A stretch of 6,409 nucleotides of DNA from a virus. Lineage: Duplodnaviria; Heunggongvirae; Uroviricota; Caudoviricetes. Where the stretch lies: positions 1 through 6,409 of the IMG/VR virus record IMGVR_UViG_2537561992_000024. One strand, 5' to 3'. A program made the translations under genes and the position numbers. Under the pieces are notes generated by a model, which saw only the letters and a program-made list of their open reading frames with translations, did not search any database and was not told the origin of the DNA. Positions 1-6,409 of the stretch are shown here, in pieces; position 1 is the first letter of the stretch; every line of letters begins with the position of its first letter.

Positions 1-19
1 CCGAAATGGGAATGAATGA
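1..19 (+). CDS. 3' end of an upstream gene, truncated by the window edge (last codons ...R-N-G-N-E-stop, stop at 17-19); possibly a RusA-like resolvase C-terminus
   Basis: Open frame from the window edge to TGA at 17-19. The stop overlaps the next ATG (16-18) in an ATGA arrangement typical of translational coupling. Only 5 codons are visible, so identity is a guess from lambdoid gene order. Confidence 0.25.
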
Positions 20-156
20 TGTTTGAGTTTTATATGGCAGAACGTCTTCGCCACCGCTGGGGGCGTCTGCGCTTATATCGTTTCCCCGGTTCTGTTTTGA
101 CCGATTACCGAATACTGAAGAATTACGCCAAAACCCTGACAGGAGCAGGAGTATGA
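16..156 (+). CDS. Small 46-aa prophage ORF (MMFEFYMAERLRHRWGRLRLYRFPGSVLTDYRILKNYAKTLTGAGV), YlcG-like, immediately upstream of Q
   Basis: ATG at 16-18 (second ATG at 19-21), stop TGA at 154-156. Not in the ORF track because it is under 60 aa. Its position between a rusA-like gene end and Q matches the DLP12-type nin region. No strong SD is visible. Confidence 0.45.
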   Translation: MMFEFYMAERLRHRWGRLRLYRFPGSVLTDYRILKNYAKTLTGAGV

Positions 157-241
157 AGTCAGAGATAACAATCAACTAATACTGTTTCGTTGATTTTTGC
201 TTGTAATTGGCGTTCTGGTCTGATTTTTGTGGAGTAAGTTG

Positions 242-625
242 ATGCGTGATATTCAGATGGTTCTTGAGCGTTGGGGAGCGTGGGCGGCTAATAATCATGA
301 AGATGTGACCTGGTCGTCCATTGCCGCCGGTTTTAAGGGATTAATTACTTCAAAAGTAAAATCTCGCCCGCAATGTTGTGACGATGACGCGATGATCATT
401 TGCGGGTGCATGGCCCGTCTGAAAAAGAACAACAGCGATTTGCACGATTTATTAGTAGATTATTATGTAGTCGGTATGACATTCATGTCACTGGCAGGTA
501 AGCATTGCTGCTCTGATGGTTATATCGGGAAAAGGTTACAGAAGGCTGAGGGCATAATTGAAGGGATGTTAATGGCATTAGATATCCGGTTAGAGATGGA
601 TATCGTTGTTAATAACTCTAATTAA
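242..625 (+). CDS. Q: Late-gene antiterminator Q (82/21/DLP12-type Q family), 127 aa
   Basis: The track ORF 227..625 begins at TTG. The likely true start is ATG 242-244, preceded by GGAG at 231-234 (7-nt spacing), giving [22 protein letters not shown]... with the Cys-rich CCDDD...CGC and CC motifs. I recognise the sequence as the lambdoid Q (QuuD-like) antiterminator. Confidence 0.9.
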
Positions 626-658
626 TATGCCAATTGTTTACTAAAAATTATTAAGAAT

Positions 659-676
659 GGGGCGTTGAAACGCCCC
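659..676. promoter_or_regulatory. Perfect palindrome GGGGCG-TTGAAA-CGCCCC just downstream of Q; candidate protein-binding or promoter element (TTGAAA could act as a -35)
   Basis: Seen directly: a 6-bp GC stem flanking TTGAAA, followed by an A-rich stretch and -10-like hexamers (TAATAT 690-695, TATAGT 710-715). Function is not established. Confidence 0.3.
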
Positions 677-715
677 CAAAAATAAAGGGTAATATATAAC
701 AGAAGGTTTATATAG

Positions 716-764
716 TTAGAAGCAAGGTTGTGCTTCTAAAGGAAGTGGCTTGAGGGAGCCACTT
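716..764. other. Two consecutive stem-loops (716-739 with a 9-bp stem; 743-764 with an 8-bp stem) between the convergent Q and porin genes
   Basis: Inverted repeats TTAGAAGCA/TGCTTCTAA and AAGTGGCT/AGCCACTT are seen directly. Neither is followed by a U-tract on either strand, so they are not canonical terminators by themselves. Confidence 0.3.
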
Positions 765-804
765 ATATGTTGGGGAGGCAAAGCCTCCCACAACATATGT
801 TTTA
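765..804 (+). terminator. Strong intrinsic terminator (15-bp GC-rich stem with one bulge, AAA loop, then GTTTT); candidate late terminator (tR'-like), also lying just 3' of the porin gene
   Basis: ATATGTTGGGGAGGC-AAA-GCCTCCCACAACATAT followed by GTTTT at 799-803. The stem plus T-tract is canonical on the plus strand. On the minus strand the hairpin sits 10 nt after the porin stop but lacks a U-tract. Confidence 0.6.
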
Positions 805-813
805 GTAATCAAA

Positions 814-1881
814 TTAGAACTGGTAAACCATACCTACAGCAACGATATCATCGGTAGCAACGCCAGATGCTTTCGTGAAATCGCTCTTATCAATCAGGTT
901 GATTTTGTAGTCAACAAAAGTGGACATATTTTTGTTGAAGTAATAGGTTGCACCTACATCAATATATTCAACCAGGTCCTGATCACCCCAAGCACCCAAG
1001 TCTTTCCCTTTAGATTGCAGATAAGCAACGGACGGACGCAGACCGAAGTCGAACTGATATTGTGCAACTACTTCGAAGTTTTGTGCTTTGTTGGCAATAT
1101 GGTTTTTACCAAAAACAGTCATGTTTTGGGTTTCAGAATAGGTAGTAGCCAGATAGATGTTGTTCGCATCATATTTCAGACCAGCTGCCCATACTTCAGC
1201 ATTTTGACCAGATGCATTCAGGCTGTTGTTACCGTAGATAACCTGATTATTAGTGCGATCAGATTTAGCATAGGTTGCACCTACGCCGAAACCTTCATAC
1301 TCATAAGTAGTGGAGAAACCGAAACCATCACCATTAGCTTGAGTTACGTCAGTACGGTCATTTTTACCCTGATACTGAGCAGCAAAGTTCAGACCATCAA
1401 CCAGACCAAAGAAGTCATTGTTACGATAAGTTGCAACACCTGTGGTGCGACCAGTCATGAATACATCTGTTTGGGTCCAGGTATCGCCACCGAATTCTGG
1501 CAGAACGTCGGTCCATGCACCAATATCGTATGCTACACCGTAGTTACGGCCATAATCGATGGAGCCGTAGTCACCGAATTTCAGGCCAGCGAAGGCAAGA
1601 CGGGTTTTATCTTTGGAGGAACCTTGAGATTCAGCGCGGTTGCCTTTGAATTCATATTCCCACTGACCGAAACCAGTCAGTTGATCGTTGATTTGGGTTT
1701 CACCTTTGAAGCCAAGACGGGCATAAGTAGTATCACCATCATCTGCATCATTAGAGGAGAAGTAGTGCTTAGCATTAACTTTCCCGTACAGATCCAGCTT
1801 GTTACTGTCTTTATTATAAATTTCAGCTGCCTGAGCAGACATCGCCATCAGTACTGATGCAGCTACAGCAGAAATTGCCAC
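814..1881 (-). CDS. nmpC: General diffusion porin of the OmpC/OmpF/PhoE family, NmpC/Lc/OmpD-type lysogenic-conversion porin; 16-strand beta-barrel with C-terminal ...VAVGMVYQF
   Basis: The 355-aa ORF has a signal-peptide-like N-terminus ending AQA followed by [16 protein letters not shown], the conserved porin motifs ([35 protein letters not shown]), and a C-terminal Phe. The track ORF starts at GTG 1879-1881 with no SD. An SD-linked ATG at 1893-1895 is out of frame by one base (see findings). Confidence 0.9.
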
Positions 1882-2099
1882 TGTTAATTTTTCATCGTGA
1901 GCCCTTTTTTTGAACTATTATTAAAAAATGATGTCACTGCGCGATAAATATTCATCTAATCAATGTGATTATTTCAAGATGTAAGTTTTGGTTTCTCATT
2001 TGATTTGTGAAGTAGATCTCTATTTTTATCTGAACTTTTTCTATCGAATCCTATTCATGGCTCTTGGCTGAATAAAAATAAATCTATTAGCCAATTTAT

Positions 2100-2140
2100 A
2101 TTAATGGCTGTTATTTATAAGTGCCCTATAATTTGAAGGT
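2100..2140. promoter_or_regulatory. AT-rich block with a perfect TATAAT (2127-2132, plus strand) and a TTGAAC...TTATAAAT arrangement on the minus strand; candidate promoter(s) for the late/lysis transcript and/or the porin
   Basis: Hexamers are seen directly, but no good -35 lies 17 bp upstream of the plus-strand TATAAT. Strand and function are unresolved. Confidence 0.2.
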
Positions 2141-2321
2141 TCAATTTAAATCGGCTAAAAATAACGCTGGAAATTATTTGTTGGTTATTTGTTGAGATTT
2201 GTTTATGTATTTGTAGTGGTGTTTTCAATACTCGGTAGCATTCTCGCAAATATCATTTAGTGGTTTACGTACGTAAAAAATTGGTTATGCTGTTAAGAGT
2301 GGTTACTTCGTCACACAGCTT

Positions 2322-2350
2322 AAACCCGCCGTCGAGCGGGTTTTTCCATT
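2322..2350 (+). terminator. Intrinsic terminator about 130 bp upstream of the holin gene (stem AAACCCGC/GCGGGTTT, loop CGTCGA, then TTTTTCCATTTTTT)
   Basis: A GC-rich stem and U-tract are seen directly. Its placement just upstream of S resembles lambda tR'. Confidence 0.5.
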
Positions 2351-2482
2351 TTTTGAGTCTCGATATTAGCTGATAACCCAATACCTGAGTTATTCACTGA
2401 CTCCGAGTCTGTTACGTTTCTGCTTTTTTGCGATACGTTGTATTCCCTCAATTTACACCCGCTTTGTCTGCGAGGTGGGGTT

Positions 2483-2698
2483 ATGAAATCCATGGATAAG
2501 TTAACAACGGGTGTCGCCTATGGCACCTCAGCAGGTAGTGCCGGTTACTGGTTTTTACAGCTGCTCGATAAAGTCACGCCCTCACAGTGGGCAGCAATAG
2601 GTGTGCTGGGTAGCCTGGTATTTGGCCTGCTGACGTACCTGACAAACCTTTATTTCAAGATTAAAGAAGATAAGCGCAAGGCTGCGAGAGGTGAATAA
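2483..2698 (+). CDS. S: Class II holin / pinholin (S21-type) with dual-start motif MKSM (antiholin from M1, holin from M4), 71 aa
   Basis: ATG at 2483 is preceded by GAGGTG at 2472-2477, with a second in-frame ATG at 2492. The product [71 protein letters not shown] has two TMDs and a charged C-terminus. The track ORF 2438..2698 starts at an upstream ATG with no SD. The stop overlaps the next gene's ATG. Confidence 0.9.
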
Positions 2699-3195
2699 TG
2701 CCTCCATCATTACGAAAAGCCGTTGCTGCTGCTATTGGTGGCGGAGCAATTGCTATAGCATCAGTGTTAATCACTGGCCCAAGTGGTAACGATGGTCTGG
2801 AAGGTGTCAGCTACATACCATACAAAGATATTGTTGGTGTATGGACTGTATGTCACGGGCATACAGGAAAAGACATCATGCTCGGTAAAACGTATACCAA
2901 AGCAGAATGCAAAGCACTCTTGAATAAAGACCTTGCCACTGTCGCCAGACAAATTAACCCGTACATCGAAGTCGATATACCGGAAACAACGCGCGGCGCT
3001 CTTTACTCATTCGTTTACAACGTGGGTGCTGGCAATTTCAGAACATCGACGCTTCTTCGCAAAATAAACCAGGGCGATATCAAAGGCGCATGTGATCAGC
3101 TACGTCGCTGGACATATGCTGGCGGTAAGCAATGGAAAGGTCTCATGACTCGTCGTGAGATTGAGCGTGAAATCTGTTTGTGGGGTCAGCAATGA
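2698..3195 (+). CDS. R: SAR endolysin (T4-lysozyme-like muramidase, R21-type) with an N-terminal signal-anchor-release domain, 165 aa
   Basis: The start overlaps the holin stop (TAATG). The Gly/Ala-rich weak [23 protein letters not shown] is followed by the catalytic triad positions E35, D44 and T50 in [18 protein letters not shown]. Confidence 0.92.
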
Positions 3196-3653
3196 ACAGA
3201 GTAACCGCGATTATCTCCGCTCTGGTTATCTGCATCATCGTCTGCCTGTCATGGGCTGTTAATCATTACCGTGATAACGCCATTACCTACAAAGCCCAGC
3301 GCGACAAAAATGCCAGAGAACTGAAGCTGGCGAACGCGGCAATTACTGACATGCAGATGCGTCAGCGTGATGTTGCTGCGCTCGATGCAAAACACACGAA
3401 GGAGTTAGCTGATGCGAAAGCTGAAAATGATGCTCTGCGTGATGATGTTGCCGCTGGTCGTCGTCGGTTGCACATCAAAGCAGTCTGCCAGTCAGTGCGT
3501 GAAGCCACCACCGCCTCCGGCGTGGATAATGCAGCCTCCCCCCGACTGGCAGACACCGCTGAACGGGATTATTTCACCCTCAGAGAGAGGCTGATCACTA
3601 TGCAAAAACAACTGGAAGGAACCCAGACGTATATTAATGAGCAGTGCAGATAG
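3192..3653 (+). CDS. Rz: Rz inner-membrane spanin (i-spanin), 153 aa
   Basis: ATG 3192-3194 overlaps the endolysin stop (ATGA). The product has an N-terminal TMD ([19 protein letters not shown]) and a coiled-coil periplasmic domain, and is lambda-Rz-like. The track ORF starts at an upstream GTG. Confidence 0.9.
3412..3594 (+). CDS. Rz1: Rz1 outer-membrane lipoprotein spanin (o-spanin), 60 aa, embedded in the +1 frame of Rz
   Basis: GGAG at 3401-3404 sits 7 nt before ATG 3412. The product has a lipobox (LVVVGC) and a proline-rich mature region ([16 protein letters not shown]), and lies entirely inside Rz in another frame. Confidence 0.88.
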
Positions 3654-3656
3654 AGC

Positions 3657-3674
3657 TGCCCATATCGATGGGCA
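3657..3674. terminator. Short hairpin (TGCCCAT-ATCG-ATGGGCA) between the convergent Rz and bor stops; possible weak bidirectional terminator
   Basis: A 7-bp stem with a 4-nt loop is seen directly. No U-tract on either side, so confidence is low. Confidence 0.25.
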
Positions 3675-3684
3675 ACTCATGCAA

Positions 3685-3978
3685 TTATTGTGAGCAATAC
3701 ACACGCGCTTCCAGCGGAGTATAAATGCCTAAAGTAATAAAACCGAGCAATCCATTTACGAATGTTTGCTGGGTTTCTGTTTTAACAACATTTTCTGCGC
3801 CGCCACAAATTTTGGCTGCATCAACAGTTTTCTCCTGTCCAATTCCCGAAACGAAGAAGTGATGGGTGATGGTTTCCTTTGGTGTTACTGCTGTCGGTTT
3901 GTTTCCAACAGTAAACGTCTGTTGAGCACATCCTGTAATAAGCATTGCCAGAGCGGCAGAAAACAACATTTTTTTCAT
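3685..3978 (-). CDS. bor: Bor outer-membrane lipoprotein (serum-resistance lysogenic-conversion protein, Iss family), 97 aa
   Basis: ATG at 3978..3976 is preceded by AGGA. The product MKKMLFSAALAMLITGCAQQTFTV...YTPLEARVYCSQ has a lipobox (LITGC). The track ORF 3685..4026 starts 16 codons upstream at an ATG with no SD. Confidence 0.9.
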   Translation of the reverse strand: MKKMLFSAALAMLITGCAQQTFTVGNKPTAVTPKETITHHFFVSGIGQEKTVDAAKICGGAENVVKTETQQTFVNGLLGFITLGIYTPLEARVYCSQ

Positions 3979-4274
3979 CTTATTATCCTGCATTGTTAAA
4001 AACGGCAGAATCCTATGTGACAACAATTAAACGATAGTTAAATGGATTGATGAAAATTAAAACTATATAGGTGGATGCTCAGCCTATTGGAGGAGGGGGG
4101 CACTCAGAATCCTGTGGAATGAAATAAACCGCTCTATCTGTCCATTACCCTTTTAGCTGCGCTGTATCGTCGCCGTATTCCCGCATTAACCATGACCGTA
4201 GCCCGACGGGGAATTCCTTCTGCGTGAGTGTGCGGGAATAATCAAAAACGATGCACACCGGGTTTTACTGTGCT

Positions 4275-4277
4275 GAC
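4275..4277. repeat. Left copy of the 3-bp target-site duplication (GAC) flanking the IS element
   Basis: GAC lies immediately outside the left terminal inverted repeat, and an identical GAC lies immediately outside the right one (5593-5595). Confidence 0.7.
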
Positions 4278-4318
4278 TGAACCGCCCCGGGTTCCTGGAG
4301 AGTGTTTTATCTGTGAAC

Positions 4319-5206
4319 TCAGGCTGCCAGATCATCGTTTCCGATGGAAGCATAATAAGCTTTTTCTGCTTCTGCCGGAGGAGTATGGCCCAGCCTTCCC
4401 AGCAATCGTCGATTGTTATACCAGTCCACCCACGTTAGTGTGGCCAGTTCCACTTCTGCACGGTTTTTCCAGCTCTTACGGTGTATTACCTCCGCTTTGT
4501 AAAGACCATTGATGCTCTCAGCCATCGCGTTGTCATACGAGTCACCTGTACTCCCTGTTGATGCCAGCAATCCGGCTTCTTTTAGTCGCTCCGTATAGGC
4601 CAGTGACACATACTGAGAACCTTTATCACTGTGATGGACTGTGCCGGACGGCCGACGGGCCCACAACGCCTGCTCCAGTGCATCCAGCACGAATGTCGTT
4701 TCCATAGACGATGAGACTCGCCACCCCACGATACATCCGGCAAACACATCAATGATGAACGCCACACAGACGAAGCCCTGCCATGTGCTGACGTAAGTAA
4801 AATCAGCCACCCACAGCTGGTCAGGACGTTCTGCCACGAACTGACGGTTTACGCGGTCGCCTGCGGAAACGGCTTTCCGGCTGACGGTAGTACGGACCTT
4901 TTTACCCCGGAGAACACCGGCAAGTCCCATAACCGCCATGAGGCGCGCCACTGTACATCTGGCCACCCTGATACCTTCGCGTAACAACTGGCGCCAGACT
5001 TTACGCACACCGTACACCTGATGATTTTCATCGTATACGCGCTGTATCTCTCTCTTCAGCCAGTCATCGCGCTGAGCACGGGCACTGCGTTTATCAGGAT
5101 GATGTCGCTGTTGCTGACAGTGGTAATACGTTGACGGGGCAATATGCAGCTCACTGCATACCGGTCCGACCCCGTACTGCTCACGCAGCTTATCCAGCAG
5201 TGGCAT
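4319..5206 (-). CDS. IS3-family transposase OrfB (DDE/RNase-H-fold catalytic domain), 295 aa, apparently intact
   Basis: Continuous ORF carrying the catalytic residues in context: WVADFTYV (D), HHSDKGSQY (D) and DNAMAESINGLYKAE (E). I recognise it as IS629-type OrfB. Confidence 0.9.
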   Translation of the reverse strand: MPLLDKLREQYGVGPVCSELHIAPSTYYHCQQQRHHPDKRSARAQRDDWLKREIQRVYDENHQVYGVRKVWRQLLREGIRVARCTVARLMAVMGLAGVLRGKKVRTTVSRKAVSAGDRVNRQFVAERPDQLWVADFTYVSTWQGFVCVAFIIDVFAGCIVGWRVSSSMETTFVLDALEQALWARRPSGTVHHSDKGSQYVSLAYTERLKEAGLLASTGSTGDSYDNAMAESINGLYKAEVIHRKSWKNRAEVELATLTWVDWYNNRRLLGRLGHTPPAEAEKAYYASIGNDDLAA

Positions 5207-5538
5207 TATTTTTTCCAGAGGCGGTCGAACTCCGCCTTCGCAAAATAAGCGGAAGCCTGGCGAAGGATATCGTTACTGCGGCGCAGTTCACGATTTTCAC
5301 GTTCCAGCTCTTTTCAGACGCTGACGTTCAGCGCTGGTGAGCCCCACCATCACCGCCCCCCGGTATCCCCGCTCCATGCTGGCGAACCCAGACACGCAGG
5401 GTCTCCGGCGTACAGCCAATCTTTGGGGCAATGGAACAAATTGCCGCCCACTGTGAGTCATATTCATCCTGACTTTCCAGAACCATACGAATCGCCCGCT
5501 GACGGACTTACGGGGGAAAAACGAGTATTTTTAGTCAT
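5206..5538 (-). pseudogene. IS3-family OrfA (HTH plus leucine-zipper transposase N-terminal module), disrupted by multiple single-base insertions
   Basis: ATG at 5538..5536 with AAGAGG 7 nt upstream opens MTKNTRFSP, then stops after 24 codons. The OrfA motifs continue in other frames: [44 protein letters not shown] (+1), [10 protein letters not shown] (+2), and ELERENRELRRSNDILRQASAYFAKAEFDRLWKK-stop (back in frame 0). Confidence 0.75.
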
Positions 5539-5592
5539 CCTGTTTACCTCTTTCTCAGGGAGTTTAGTCTCCAGGATTTCCGGGGCGGTTCA

Positions 5593-5595
5593 GAC
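5593..5595. repeat. Right copy of the 3-bp target-site duplication (GAC)
   Basis: See the left copy at 4275-4277. Confidence 0.7.
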
Positions 5596-5655
5596 AGACG
5601 CAGGGTTACCCTCATAGTCGCTTTTCCGGTGCGATGGTGGAAGAAACCGGGATGT

Positions 5656-5850
5656 TTATTCATCATCACTTTGGATTGATGTATATGCTCTCTTTTCTGA
5701 CGTTAGTCTCCGACGGCAGGCTTCAATGACCCAGGCTGAGAAATTCCCAGACCCTTTTTGCTCAAGAGCGATGTTAATTTGTTCAATCATTTGGTTAGGA
5801 AAGCGGATGTTGCGGGTTGTTGTTCTGCGGGTTTTGTTCTTCGTTGACAT
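5656..5850 (-). CDS. Small basic protein (64 aa) with a ribbon-helix-helix-like pattern (RNIRFP strand, then helices NQMIEQINIALEQ and NFSAWVIEACRRRL); putative DNA-binding protein of the cos-proximal region (YlcI/DUF3950-like)
   Basis: ATG at 5850..5848 on the minus strand gives MSTKNKTRRTTTRNIRFPNQMIEQINIALEQKGSGNFSAWVIEACRRRLTSEKRAYTSIQSDDE. The fold is inferred from the sequence pattern only. Confidence 0.6.
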   Translation of the reverse strand: MSTKNKTRRTTTRNIRFPNQMIEQINIALEQKGSGNFSAWVIEACRRRLTSEKRAYTSIQSDDE

Positions 5851-6050
5851 GAGGTTGCCCCGTATTCAGTGTCGCTGATTTGTATTGTCTGAAGTTGTTT
5901 TTACGTTAAGTTGATGCAGATCAATTAATACGATACCTGCGTCATAATTGATTATTTGACGTGGTTTGATGGCGTAGATGCACGTTGTGACATATAGATG
6001 ATAATTATTATTCATTTTGCGGGTCCTTTCCGGCGATCCGACAGGTTACG

Positions 6051-6062
6051 GGGCGGCGACCT
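6051..6062 (+). other. cosN: the 12-nt cohesive-end sequence GGGCGGCGACCT (identical to phage lambda), with lambda-like flanks (ACAGGTTACG upstream; CGCGGGTTTTCGCTATTTATGAAAATTTTCCGG downstream)
   Basis: I recognise an exact match to the lambda cohesive-end sequence and its immediate flanks. It sits between the right-arm genes and a Nu1-like gene, as in lambda. Confidence 0.85.
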
Positions 6063-6100
6063 CGCGGGTTTTCGCTATTTATGAAAATTTTCCGGGATCC

Positions 6101-6111
6101 ATGTCCGGTTT
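6101..6111. repeat. cosB R3-like terminase-binding repeat (ATGTCCGGTTT), inverted relative to the two downstream copies
   Basis: Reverse complement of the AAACCGGACAT core repeated at 6157-6169 and 6187-6199. Confidence 0.5.
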
Positions 6112-6156
6112 CTCTTCAAGTTAACTATATGAAAAATATAAAAACAGGTCTTCTGT

Positions 6157-6169
6157 GAACCGGACATGA
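6157..6169. repeat. cosB R2-like repeat (GAACCGGACATGA)
   Basis: Direct repeat of the 6187-6199 copy, separated from the R3-like copy by an A/T-rich spacer (a possible IHF-bend region). Confidence 0.5.
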
Positions 6170-6186
6170 ACAAAAAATAGATATGT

Positions 6187-6199
6187 AAACCGGACATGA
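6187..6199. repeat. cosB R1-like repeat (AAACCGGACATGA), part of the local palindrome AAACCGG-ACATGA-CCGGTTT
   Basis: Seen directly. It lies about 45 bp upstream of the terminase small-subunit start. Confidence 0.5.
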
Positions 6200-6245
6200 C
6201 CGGTTTTGTTGTGATTGTGAGGTGAGAGTTTTTGCGAGGTGAGGA

Positions 6246-6409
6246 GTGGCTACGCAGACTGAAGTTGCCAGGCATTTAAGTCTGACCGATCGCCAGCTTC
6301 GCAGATTGCAGAAATTGCCGGGTGCCCCGATATCAAATAAGCGAGGGCAACTGGATCTGGATGCCTGGCGCGATTTTTACATATCGTATCTGAGGAGAAG
6401 TAAAAACGA
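6246..6409 (+). CDS. Terminase small subunit (Nu1-like, N-terminal winged-HTH), 5' part only; continues beyond the window
   Basis: GTG 6246 is preceded by GAGG at 6236-6239 and an in-frame stop at 6240-6242. The product (M)ATQTEVARHLSLTDRQLRRLQKLPGAPISNKRGQLDLDAWRDFYISYLRRSKN... resembles the lambda Nu1 N-terminus in pattern and sits directly after cosB. Confidence 0.6.
   Translation, partial: MATQTEVARHLSLTDRQLRRLQKLPGAPISNKRGQLDLDAWRDFYISYLRRSKN

Follow-up and report, generated by a model that had tools for sequence, protein, structure and literature searches.

Among the lambda-like phages, only three packaging specificities, those of lambda, phage 21, and N15, had been documented experimentally according to Feiss and co-workers in 2015 (PMC4669245). 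In the lambda system of cos, gpNu1, and gpA, the cosB elements are arranged in the order R3-I1-R2-R1, and R3, located at bp 50-65, is critical among the R sites (PMC9026076). Phage 21 with its small terminase subunit gp1, a type that also includes the noh genes of DLP12 and Qin, represents the classical alternative specificity. Here, we compare these systems with a 6,409-nucleotide stretch of viral DNA (IMG/VR record IMGVR_UViG_2537561992_000024, positions 1 to 6,409), hereafter called the window. Its positions 6021-6409 are best explained as the packaging-initiation region of a lambda-like prophage, of the same type as Sp4 and Sp14 in O157 Sakai, comprising cosQ, cosN, cosB, and the start of terS, which encodes the small terminase subunit (TerS). 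Judged from sequence comparison, a lambda-type cos is probably combined here with an alternative cosB and a cognate, divergent TerS domain, forming a natural packaging-specificity cassette. The module is already known as a sequence, from cos and Nu1 of Sakai Sp4 and Sp14; its cosB is barely described.

The elements of this region are listed below, with bp numbers counted from the left cohesive end and bp 1 of the predicted virion left end at position 6051; IHF denotes integration host factor.

6021..6027, + strand: cosQ heptamer GGGTCCT, which serves to terminate packaging; bp -29 relative to the left cohesive end
6051..6062, + strand: cosN cohesive end GGGCGGCGACCT, identical to those of lambda and phage 21
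6063..6095, + strand: right flank of cosN, bp 13-45, 100% lambda-identical, up to the mosaic boundary 6095/6096
6080-6094, inside this flank: I2 IHF-type element TATGAAAATTTTCCG, annotated at the corresponding position of phage 21 record M81255
6100..6111, - strand: R3-equivalent predicted TerS site CATGTCCGGTTT, bp 50-61 (R3 of lambda and phage 21, bp 50-65)
6122..6134, - strand: I1-equivalent IHF-like site TAACTATATGAAA, bp 72-84, followed by an A-rich tract to about 6144
6157..6168, + strand: R2-equivalent site GAACCGGACATG, bp 107-118, inverted with respect to R3
6187..6198, + strand: R1-equivalent site AAACCGGACATG, bp 137-148, a direct repeat of R2
6195..6206, - strand: degenerate fourth half-site CATGACCGGTTT, overlapping R1
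6246..6409, + strand: 5' part of terS, 54 codons, with a GTG start and a winged helix-turn-helix (HTH); the open reading frame runs off the window end

The left part of this region is that of lambda. A 12-nt cohesive end with flanking symmetry is preceded by cosQ about 30 bp upstream of the predicted nicking site, and in BLASTN against the circularised lambda junction the identity was 95.8% over 457 bp (5639-6095), a match that includes the cosQ heptamer, and 100% over the last 56 bp. This last stretch, composed of 11 bp to the left of the cohesive end, the 12-nt end itself, and 33 bp to the right, is 100% identical from 6040 to 6095 or 6096 in lambda, HK629, HK630, DE3, and others. The first-pass annotation of this DNA had noted a match of cosN and about 33 bp of flanking sequence to lambda, and this match proved exact. 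Homology to lambda ends precisely at 6095, that is, bp 45; from 6096 onward the sequence is unrelated to lambda, and no lambda R sequence was found after bp 45. The boundary at bp 45/46 is the predicted border between cosN and cosB. Asadulghani et al. 2009 aligned cos and Nu1 of Sp4 and Sp14 from O157 Sakai with those of lambda, labelled GGGTCCT as cosQ, and annotated the I2 site at the same place as we do (Fig S8 in PMC2669165). The Nu1 N-terminus MATQTEVARHLSLTDRQLRRLQK in Sp4 and Sp14 is identical to that of the window, and their cos is the same through CCGGGATCCATGT. The parts of that paper considered here mention neither cosB, R sites, nor a distinct specificity, and the alignment stops at the first repeat.

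To the right of the boundary, ACCGGACATG is found at 6100-6109 (- strand), 6159-6168 (+), and 6189-6198 (+), with a one-mismatch copy at 6195-6204 (-). Only 0.30 matches are expected by chance in the window, none of 200 shuffles reached four, and a search of 14.5 kb from the orthologous prophage of O26 found the motif at this spot only. These repeats had initially been counted as three copies of a ACCGGACATG-core unit, one inverted and two direct. Core and orientations hold, but the unit is longer, CATGTCCGGTT(T) of 11-12 bp, and the count omitted the degenerate fourth copy (6195-6206), which is not conserved in relatives. The A/T-rich spacer reported between the inverted and the first direct copy is present at 6112-6156. 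R2 is 100% complementary to R3 over 11 nt. As in a cosB, an R3 near bp 50, an IHF-like site, an inverted R2, and additionally an R1 lie upstream of terS.

R1 and its degenerate inverted partner (R1') form a 7-bp stem followed by TTTTGTTGTG, a terminator-like arrangement at 6187-6216 just upstream of terS. We rejected the fourth half-site and this hairpin as functional parts, since they are not conserved: both are lost in the IMG/VR loci L117-L121, where the half-site reads GCGG and R1 is kept. They are probably incidental. More generally, the inverted repeats might be a nucleic-acid structure, such as an RNA or DNA hairpin or a late-transcript terminator upstream of terS, and not TerS sites. 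R3 and R2 do pair in the predicted RNA fold (minimum free energy -31.7 kcal/mol, z = -2.6), R1/R1' with the adjoining T-run resembles a terminator, and concerted changes in both arms, described below, also keep complementarity. But R1, as a direct repeat, is superfluous for a hairpin, and the loss of R1' and its stem leaves R1 in place. Distant relatives carry tandem direct TTCCGGTTCCGGTT with no inverted partner. Furthermore, the repeat positions coincide with R3, I1, and R2 of lambda and phage 21, the variable base of the repeats covaries with a protein residue, and a 45-nt loop containing an IHF consensus site fits protein-bent DNA better. We therefore regard a purely structural role of the repeats as highly improbable and treat them as putative TerS sites.

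The alignment of the cos region to lambda and phage 21, which had been recommended as a check, reveals a shared cosN and repeats at the R3, I1, R2, and R1 positions. In common with lambda, the window has cosQ, the 12-nt cohesive end, bp 13-45, the order R3-I1-R2-R1, and an R3 that begins at bp 50. On the protein side, the two systems share the winged-HTH fold, a C-terminal two-thirds of TerS that is 40% identical, and a large terminase subunit (TerL) that is 66% identical. They differ in the R sites, CGTTTCC(T/G)TTCT in lambda versus CATGTCCGGTT in the window, in the orientation of R1, which in the window is that of R2, and in the DNA-binding domain, which in the window is beyond detection by BLASTP or the Pfam Nu1 profile. 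The recognition helix likewise reads TDRQLRRLQK instead of SIRTIQNWQEQ, so that neither component is of the lambda specificity.

The R sites are closer to those of phage 21. In record M81255, R3, I1, R2, and R1 are annotated at bp 50-65, 72-86, 107-122, and 150-165, respectively, and the window shares cosN and the coordinates of the first three of these. The initial description of the repeats as unlike the R sites of lambda was correct, but it missed that they are one inserted base away from the R core of phage 21 (CATGTCGG versus CATGTCCGG in the window). The DNA-binding-domain sequence class, the site flanks, and the R1 orientation are different. The cosB could be real and its specificity nevertheless that of phage 21, or cross-reacting with it. 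CATGTC..GG is common to the phage 21 sites TTTCATGTCGG(A/G)CC and the window motif xCATGTCCGGTTx, which are separated by a single inserted C, I1 and R2 occupy phage 21 coordinates, and the recognition helices of both proteins share R16/17, R20/21, and Q22/23; moreover, the N15 terminase packages lambda DNA despite its divergent system (PMC4669245). Against a shared specificity, a one-base insertion halfway through a 9-bp site displaces half of its contacts, the motif lies about 3 bp toward cosN, and its flanks are GGTTT versus GGxCC. The phage 21 combination of a (T/C)(A/G)TGTCGG core with the helix DPRTIERWQSQ is absent, the window having an extra C in the core, other flanks, and a DNA-binding domain that BLASTP cannot align with that of phage 21. 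On balance, we consider identity or cross-reaction with the phage 21 specificity unlikely, and a specificity distinct from that of lambda is more certain than one distinct from that of phage 21.

In N15 and Monarch, the same principle is realized with other sequences: a lambda-like cos is combined with a different R3 and recognition helix. The cosB of the window is complex and tripartite, not simple as in N15. A simple cosB of tandem direct TTCCGGTTCCGGTT, located directly before terS, occurs in distant relatives (Aeromonas phiARM81ld, Pseudomonas LPPA33, and Azospirillum and other metagenome-assembled-genome loci) and resembles that of N15 (PMC4669245). The Aeromonas phiARM81ld record starts at the GGGCGTTAGACC end. 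The cos1 and Rpp of phage-inducible chromosomal islands (PICIs; EcCICFT073) differ from the window in that its reader domain is the N-terminus of TerS itself, within a complete head-gene operon; terS directly follows cos, and an rpp-like gene adjoining cos was not found. The repeats might still be bound by another protein, either a prophage regulator or an Rpp-like redirecting factor, with TerS recognizing something else. We give this explanation very little weight, given that the winged-HTH domain belongs to TerS itself and accompanies the repeats at every locus examined, and that the only gene upstream of cos, ylcI (DUF3950), is also found upstream of the lambda-type cosB in a sister prophage. 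TerS remains the most plausible reader of the repeats.

The window contains only the first 54 codons of terS; their GTG start at 6246 is the same as that of RefSeq WP_000235436 in O26 11368. The full-length orthologue has 169 amino acids, 12 residues fewer than lambda Nu1, and belongs to the Nu1 family by profile thresholds: Pfam Phage_Nu1 (PF07471) scores 67.9 bits against a cutoff of 30, matching only residues 49-150 (profile positions 62-163), and PHROG 57 matches residues 1-169 and also the 54-residue fragment of the window (E=1.2e-9). In BLASTP, lambda Nu1 and phage 21 gp1 align only from residues 49 and 64 onward, with 40% identity, and NCBIfam had no match for either TerS or the fragment. 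A PDB sequence search with the family profile returned chance matches only and not even the lambda Nu1 DNA-binding domain, so that we turned to fold comparison, from which the full-length AlphaFold model was left out because of its mediocre predicted local distance difference test score (pLDDT 69.5). The N-terminal domain, comprising the first 54 residues, adopts the Nu1/Rpp winged-HTH fold in this comparison, MerR-family regulators being among the matches as for a MerR/Nu1-type domain, and hhalign pairs TerS residues 5-35 with Nu1 residues 6-36. Considering the shared fold and this pairing, the domain is homologous to the DNA-binding domain of Nu1, if strongly diverged, and is not a foreign one. 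The first-pass annotation had thus rightly assigned a different HTH region to the small subunit, with the Pfam and BLASTP matches confined to the C-terminal part. The predicted recognition helix comprises residues 15-22 (DRQLRRLQ).

Beyond the window, the orthologous loci L001, L002, and L018-L029 have an overlapping gpA-type large terminase gene (GpA_ATPase and GpA_nuclease), and TerL of phage PhiR12_1 is 66% identical to lambda gpA. In the orthologues, cos is followed by terS, terL, W, portal, protease, D, and E. A tandem Shine-Dalgarno-like duplicate, TTGTGAGGTGAG at 6215-6226 and TTGCGAGGTGAG at 6232-6243, precedes the GTG of terS and is kept in close relatives.

From the anatomy of this locus, we infer a mode of action in which a gpA-type large terminase, positioned by the small subunit, would nick at the lambda-identical cosN. 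The TerS winged HTH would bind the CATGTCCGGTT repeats, contacting R3 (bp 50-61) and the inverted R2 across a bend induced by IHF at about bp 72-84, and R1 would act as an accessory site. Since the R sequence and the recognition helix both differ from those of lambda, such a terminase would be expected to package its own DNA but to leave lambda-type DNA unpackaged, and vice versa. The comparison supports the layout proposed at the outset, a packaging-specificity swap with the same nicking site and a different predicted recognition site.

A scan of genome contigs gave 12 loci, few of them enterobacterial; the comparative set was supplied by exact-protein look-ups and two IMG/VR scans. It includes ten loci with the TerS N-terminus MATQxEVAxHL from five genera (Escherichia, Klebsiella, Salmonella, Citrobacter, and Enterobacter), namely, the window, phage PhiR12_1, a Klebsiella locus, a second E. 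coli type, two Salmonella loci, a Citrobacter locus, Enterobacter kobei, and two read-archive contigs. The cosQ heptamer is located at bp -29 in eight of these and at bp -28 in the remaining two. Without exception, the CCGG cores of R3 and R2 are 55 bp apart, at bp 55 or 56 and at bp 110 or 111, respectively. The best IHF match is located at bp 72 or 73 with 0-2 mismatches, on the strand used in lambda and phage 21, in nine of ten loci, five of which match perfectly; the exception is Enterobacter L029, with its best match at bp 84 on the opposite strand. Apart from L029, the loci orthologous to the window have no more than one mismatch (0-1) at this site. The R1 core is less constant: it is positioned at bp 140 (window type, Enterobacter L029, and L117-L124) or, in some loci, at bp 153, and several relatives from Salmonella and Citrobacter lack it and carry R3 and R2 alone.

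At closer range, the two IMG/VR scans yielded 77 close relatives representing 41 distinct sequences, and 40 rows were scored (the window, PhiR12_1, and 38 sequences). None of the 12 columns of the cohesive end and none of the 12 columns of R3 varied, as compared with 3/12 in R2, all rare variants, 2/12 in R1, 41% in the R3-R2 spacer (22 nt adjoining R2), and 61% in the R2-R1 spacer (R sites versus spacers, Fisher p=0.012). No other bases in the intergenic region are as conserved as the repeats. Between PhiR12_1 and the window, clustered substitutions abut the repeats and none fall inside them. The order of conservation, R3 > R2 > R1, parallels the known ranking of the lambda sites by function.

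Between genera, the site occurs in three variants, CATGTCCGG, CATTTCCGG, and CACTTCCGG, and R3 and R2 of one locus share the same variant. In every R site of a locus, the G/T base tracks residue 20 of TerS in the predicted recognition helix: five loci combine ..LRRLQK (R20) with G, and the other five combine ..LRDLQK or ..LRNLQK (D/N20) with T. These data support the view that the repeats change in concert with what is predicted to be the TerS recognition helix. The G/T base occupies the motif position of bp 56, which is T in lambda R3 and G in phage 21 R3, and genetic work identified bp 56 as one of two base pairs on which the discrimination between lambda and 21 depends (PMC4669245). In the most far-reaching reading, the cassette would represent a fourth specificity, orthogonal to lambda, 21, and N15, and would itself comprise two or more sub-specificities, depending on whether residue 20 is Arg or Asp/Asn and reads G or T two nucleotides upstream of CCGG; we give this extended proposal an even chance.

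Evidence of modularity comes from the distribution of the parts. In strain E2865, a DLP12-like prophage is identical to the window over about 5590-6095 and then continues into a lambda-type cosB and a Nu1 98% identical to that of lambda, whereas a second prophage of the same strain carries the cosB/TerS cassette of the window. Conversely, L117-L121 combine the same DNA-binding domain and R3, R2, and R1 cores at bp 55, 110, and 140 with different cohesive ends. These ends are GGGCGGCAGACG, GGTCATAGCACG, and GGTCGTAGGACG, each followed by CGCAAAAACGCGCTATTTATG, and their variation implies either that the nicking preference of TerL changes with them or that cosN is allowed to vary. The C-terminal module of TerS, in turn, occurs with three classes of DNA-binding domain: besides the class of the window, it is fused to a classical Nu1-type domain in Salmonella (P0063, P0067) and to a third class, beginning MAxLLNKSDMASSIGISVQAF, in Klebsiella, Salmonella, and Edwardsiella (P0069, P0073, P0076). 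The additional N-terminal classes suggest further uncharacterised cosB specificities. A cassette found with other cohesive ends and a TerS C-terminus found with three domain classes mean that the module is swappable, and together with the E2865 case they identify cosB plus the DNA-binding-domain part of terS as the exchangeable unit. The same segment was exchanged by the Feiss laboratory to build 21- and N15-specific lambda hybrids (PMC4669245). The specificity cassette would measure about 330 bp, from bp 46 to approximately codon 55-65 of terS, and its recombination would be independent both of cosN, to its left, and of the TerL-binding half of TerS, to its right.

Several observations weigh against a distinct, functional specificity cassette. 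With respect to the sites, the IHF-like site of the window has two mismatches to YAANNNNTTGATW, as does lambda's own best IHF match, at bp 74; the motif is located about 3 bp nearer to cosN than in phage 21; and R1 is oriented opposite to R1 of both lambda and phage 21. With respect to the proposed contact, the states of residue 20 follow two clades of the DNA-binding domain (69-76% versus 56-70% identity to that of the window), so that the covariation may reflect as few as one or two evolutionary events. In addition, in the genetics of lambda and phage 21, bp 56 pairs with residue 24 and not with residue 21, which makes the proposed contact of residue 20 tentative. Finally, the copy in the window may belong to a defective or rearranged prophage, considering the IS3-family insertion upstream, a terL pseudogene in the O26 orthologue, and the fact that packaging of Sakai Sp14 itself was not detected (PMC2669165). 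This terL, in O26:H11 11368 (L001 7877-9805), is annotated as a pseudogene with an internal stop beside a 99.5%-identical cos/terS, and hence at least some copies of the module reside in packaging-defective prophages and would be packageable only in trans.

Of 5,426 complete E. coli genomes, 707 contain at least 80% of window positions 5850-6409, a segment extending over cos, cosB, and the start of terS, whereas the TerS DNA-binding domain of the window is found in only 13 of 50,697 phage records. Two observations speak for function in vivo. Sp4 DNA, which has this cos, was packaged although its nu1 is disrupted, presumably by the Sp14 terminase in trans (PMC2669165), and five PhiR12 phage records carry the module and list K-12 MG1655 or E. 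coli C as hosts; we found no paper on this phage series, and its status as viable phage rests on these GenBank host fields. Nor did we find a paper in the open-access literature that describes these R sites or characterises the cassette experimentally. In mechanism the cassette is ordinary, a variation on the lambda/phage 21 theme that leaves the known packaging mechanism unchanged, and it is abundant in pathogenic E. coli. Its interest lies in the fact that packaging specificity decides which DNAs of a polylysogenic cell are encapsidated, and in enterohaemorrhagic E. coli (EHEC) many lambda-like prophages complement, recombine with, and mobilise one another, virulence cargo included. If the extended proposal of a fourth specificity is correct, the cassette, which coexists in single EHEC genomes with lambda-type prophages sharing an identical 500-bp ylcI-cosQ-cosN segment, would insulate such co-resident prophages from packaging each other; recombination and inversion between prophages would nevertheless have a hotspot in the shared segment. 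The description is testable, as it specifies the limits of the cassette, the predicted positions of the R sites and of an IHF site, and a candidate specificity contact for what would be a far more abundant specificity. It might be used to predict trans-packaging among prophages, and the cos/TerS pair might serve as an orthogonal pair in cosmid or phage engineering.

As a whole, the window represents the late region of a lambdoid prophage from E. coli. The genes and elements in it are, in order, a quuD-like antiterminator, a minus-strand ompC/nmpC-like porin gene, essD holin, rrrD lysozyme, rzpD with Rz1, bor/iss, an IS3-family insertion, ylcI, cos, and the first 54 codons of terS. A sigma-70 promoter scan of 5850-6409 found no promoter. 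The whole window in one piece was present in no complete E. coli genome of the collection. Its best matches as a whole are EHEC strains of O26/O111, which are 99.3-99.4% identical over 1-6095 and then have a lambda-type cosB and Nu1, as in the DLP12-like prophage of E2865 (624,638-630,728). Positions 6096-6409 match a second prophage of the same strains, located at about 3.06 Mb in E2865 and inverted in orientation, and the two E2865 prophages are identical over about 500 bp (ylcI-cosQ-cosN-bp 45). Because its arms match two prophages that share this segment, the window looks like an inter-prophage recombinant, produced by inversion or gene conversion, or an assembly chimera across the approximately 500-bp repeat, with the crossover within about 5590-6095. 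An assembly artefact at the 6095/6096 join itself was rejected, this join being native in O26 11368, PhiR12, and Sakai Sp4/Sp14; the link of the left arm to the cosB/TerS cassette may, however, be such an artefact.

The ompC/nmpC-type porin gene, at 814-1881 on the minus strand, has the Q-like antiterminator on one side and the lysis cassette on the other, an arrangement also seen in DLP12. An IS5 insertion interrupts nmpC in K-12; the porin gene of the window appears intact and is named 'porin OmpC' by RefSeq in matching genomes. The IS3-family element, IS1203-like with orfA/orfB and a programmed frameshift, occupies approximately 4200-5520 on the minus strand between bor/iss and ylcI, and the same insertion is found in the DLP12-like prophage of O26/O111 strains.

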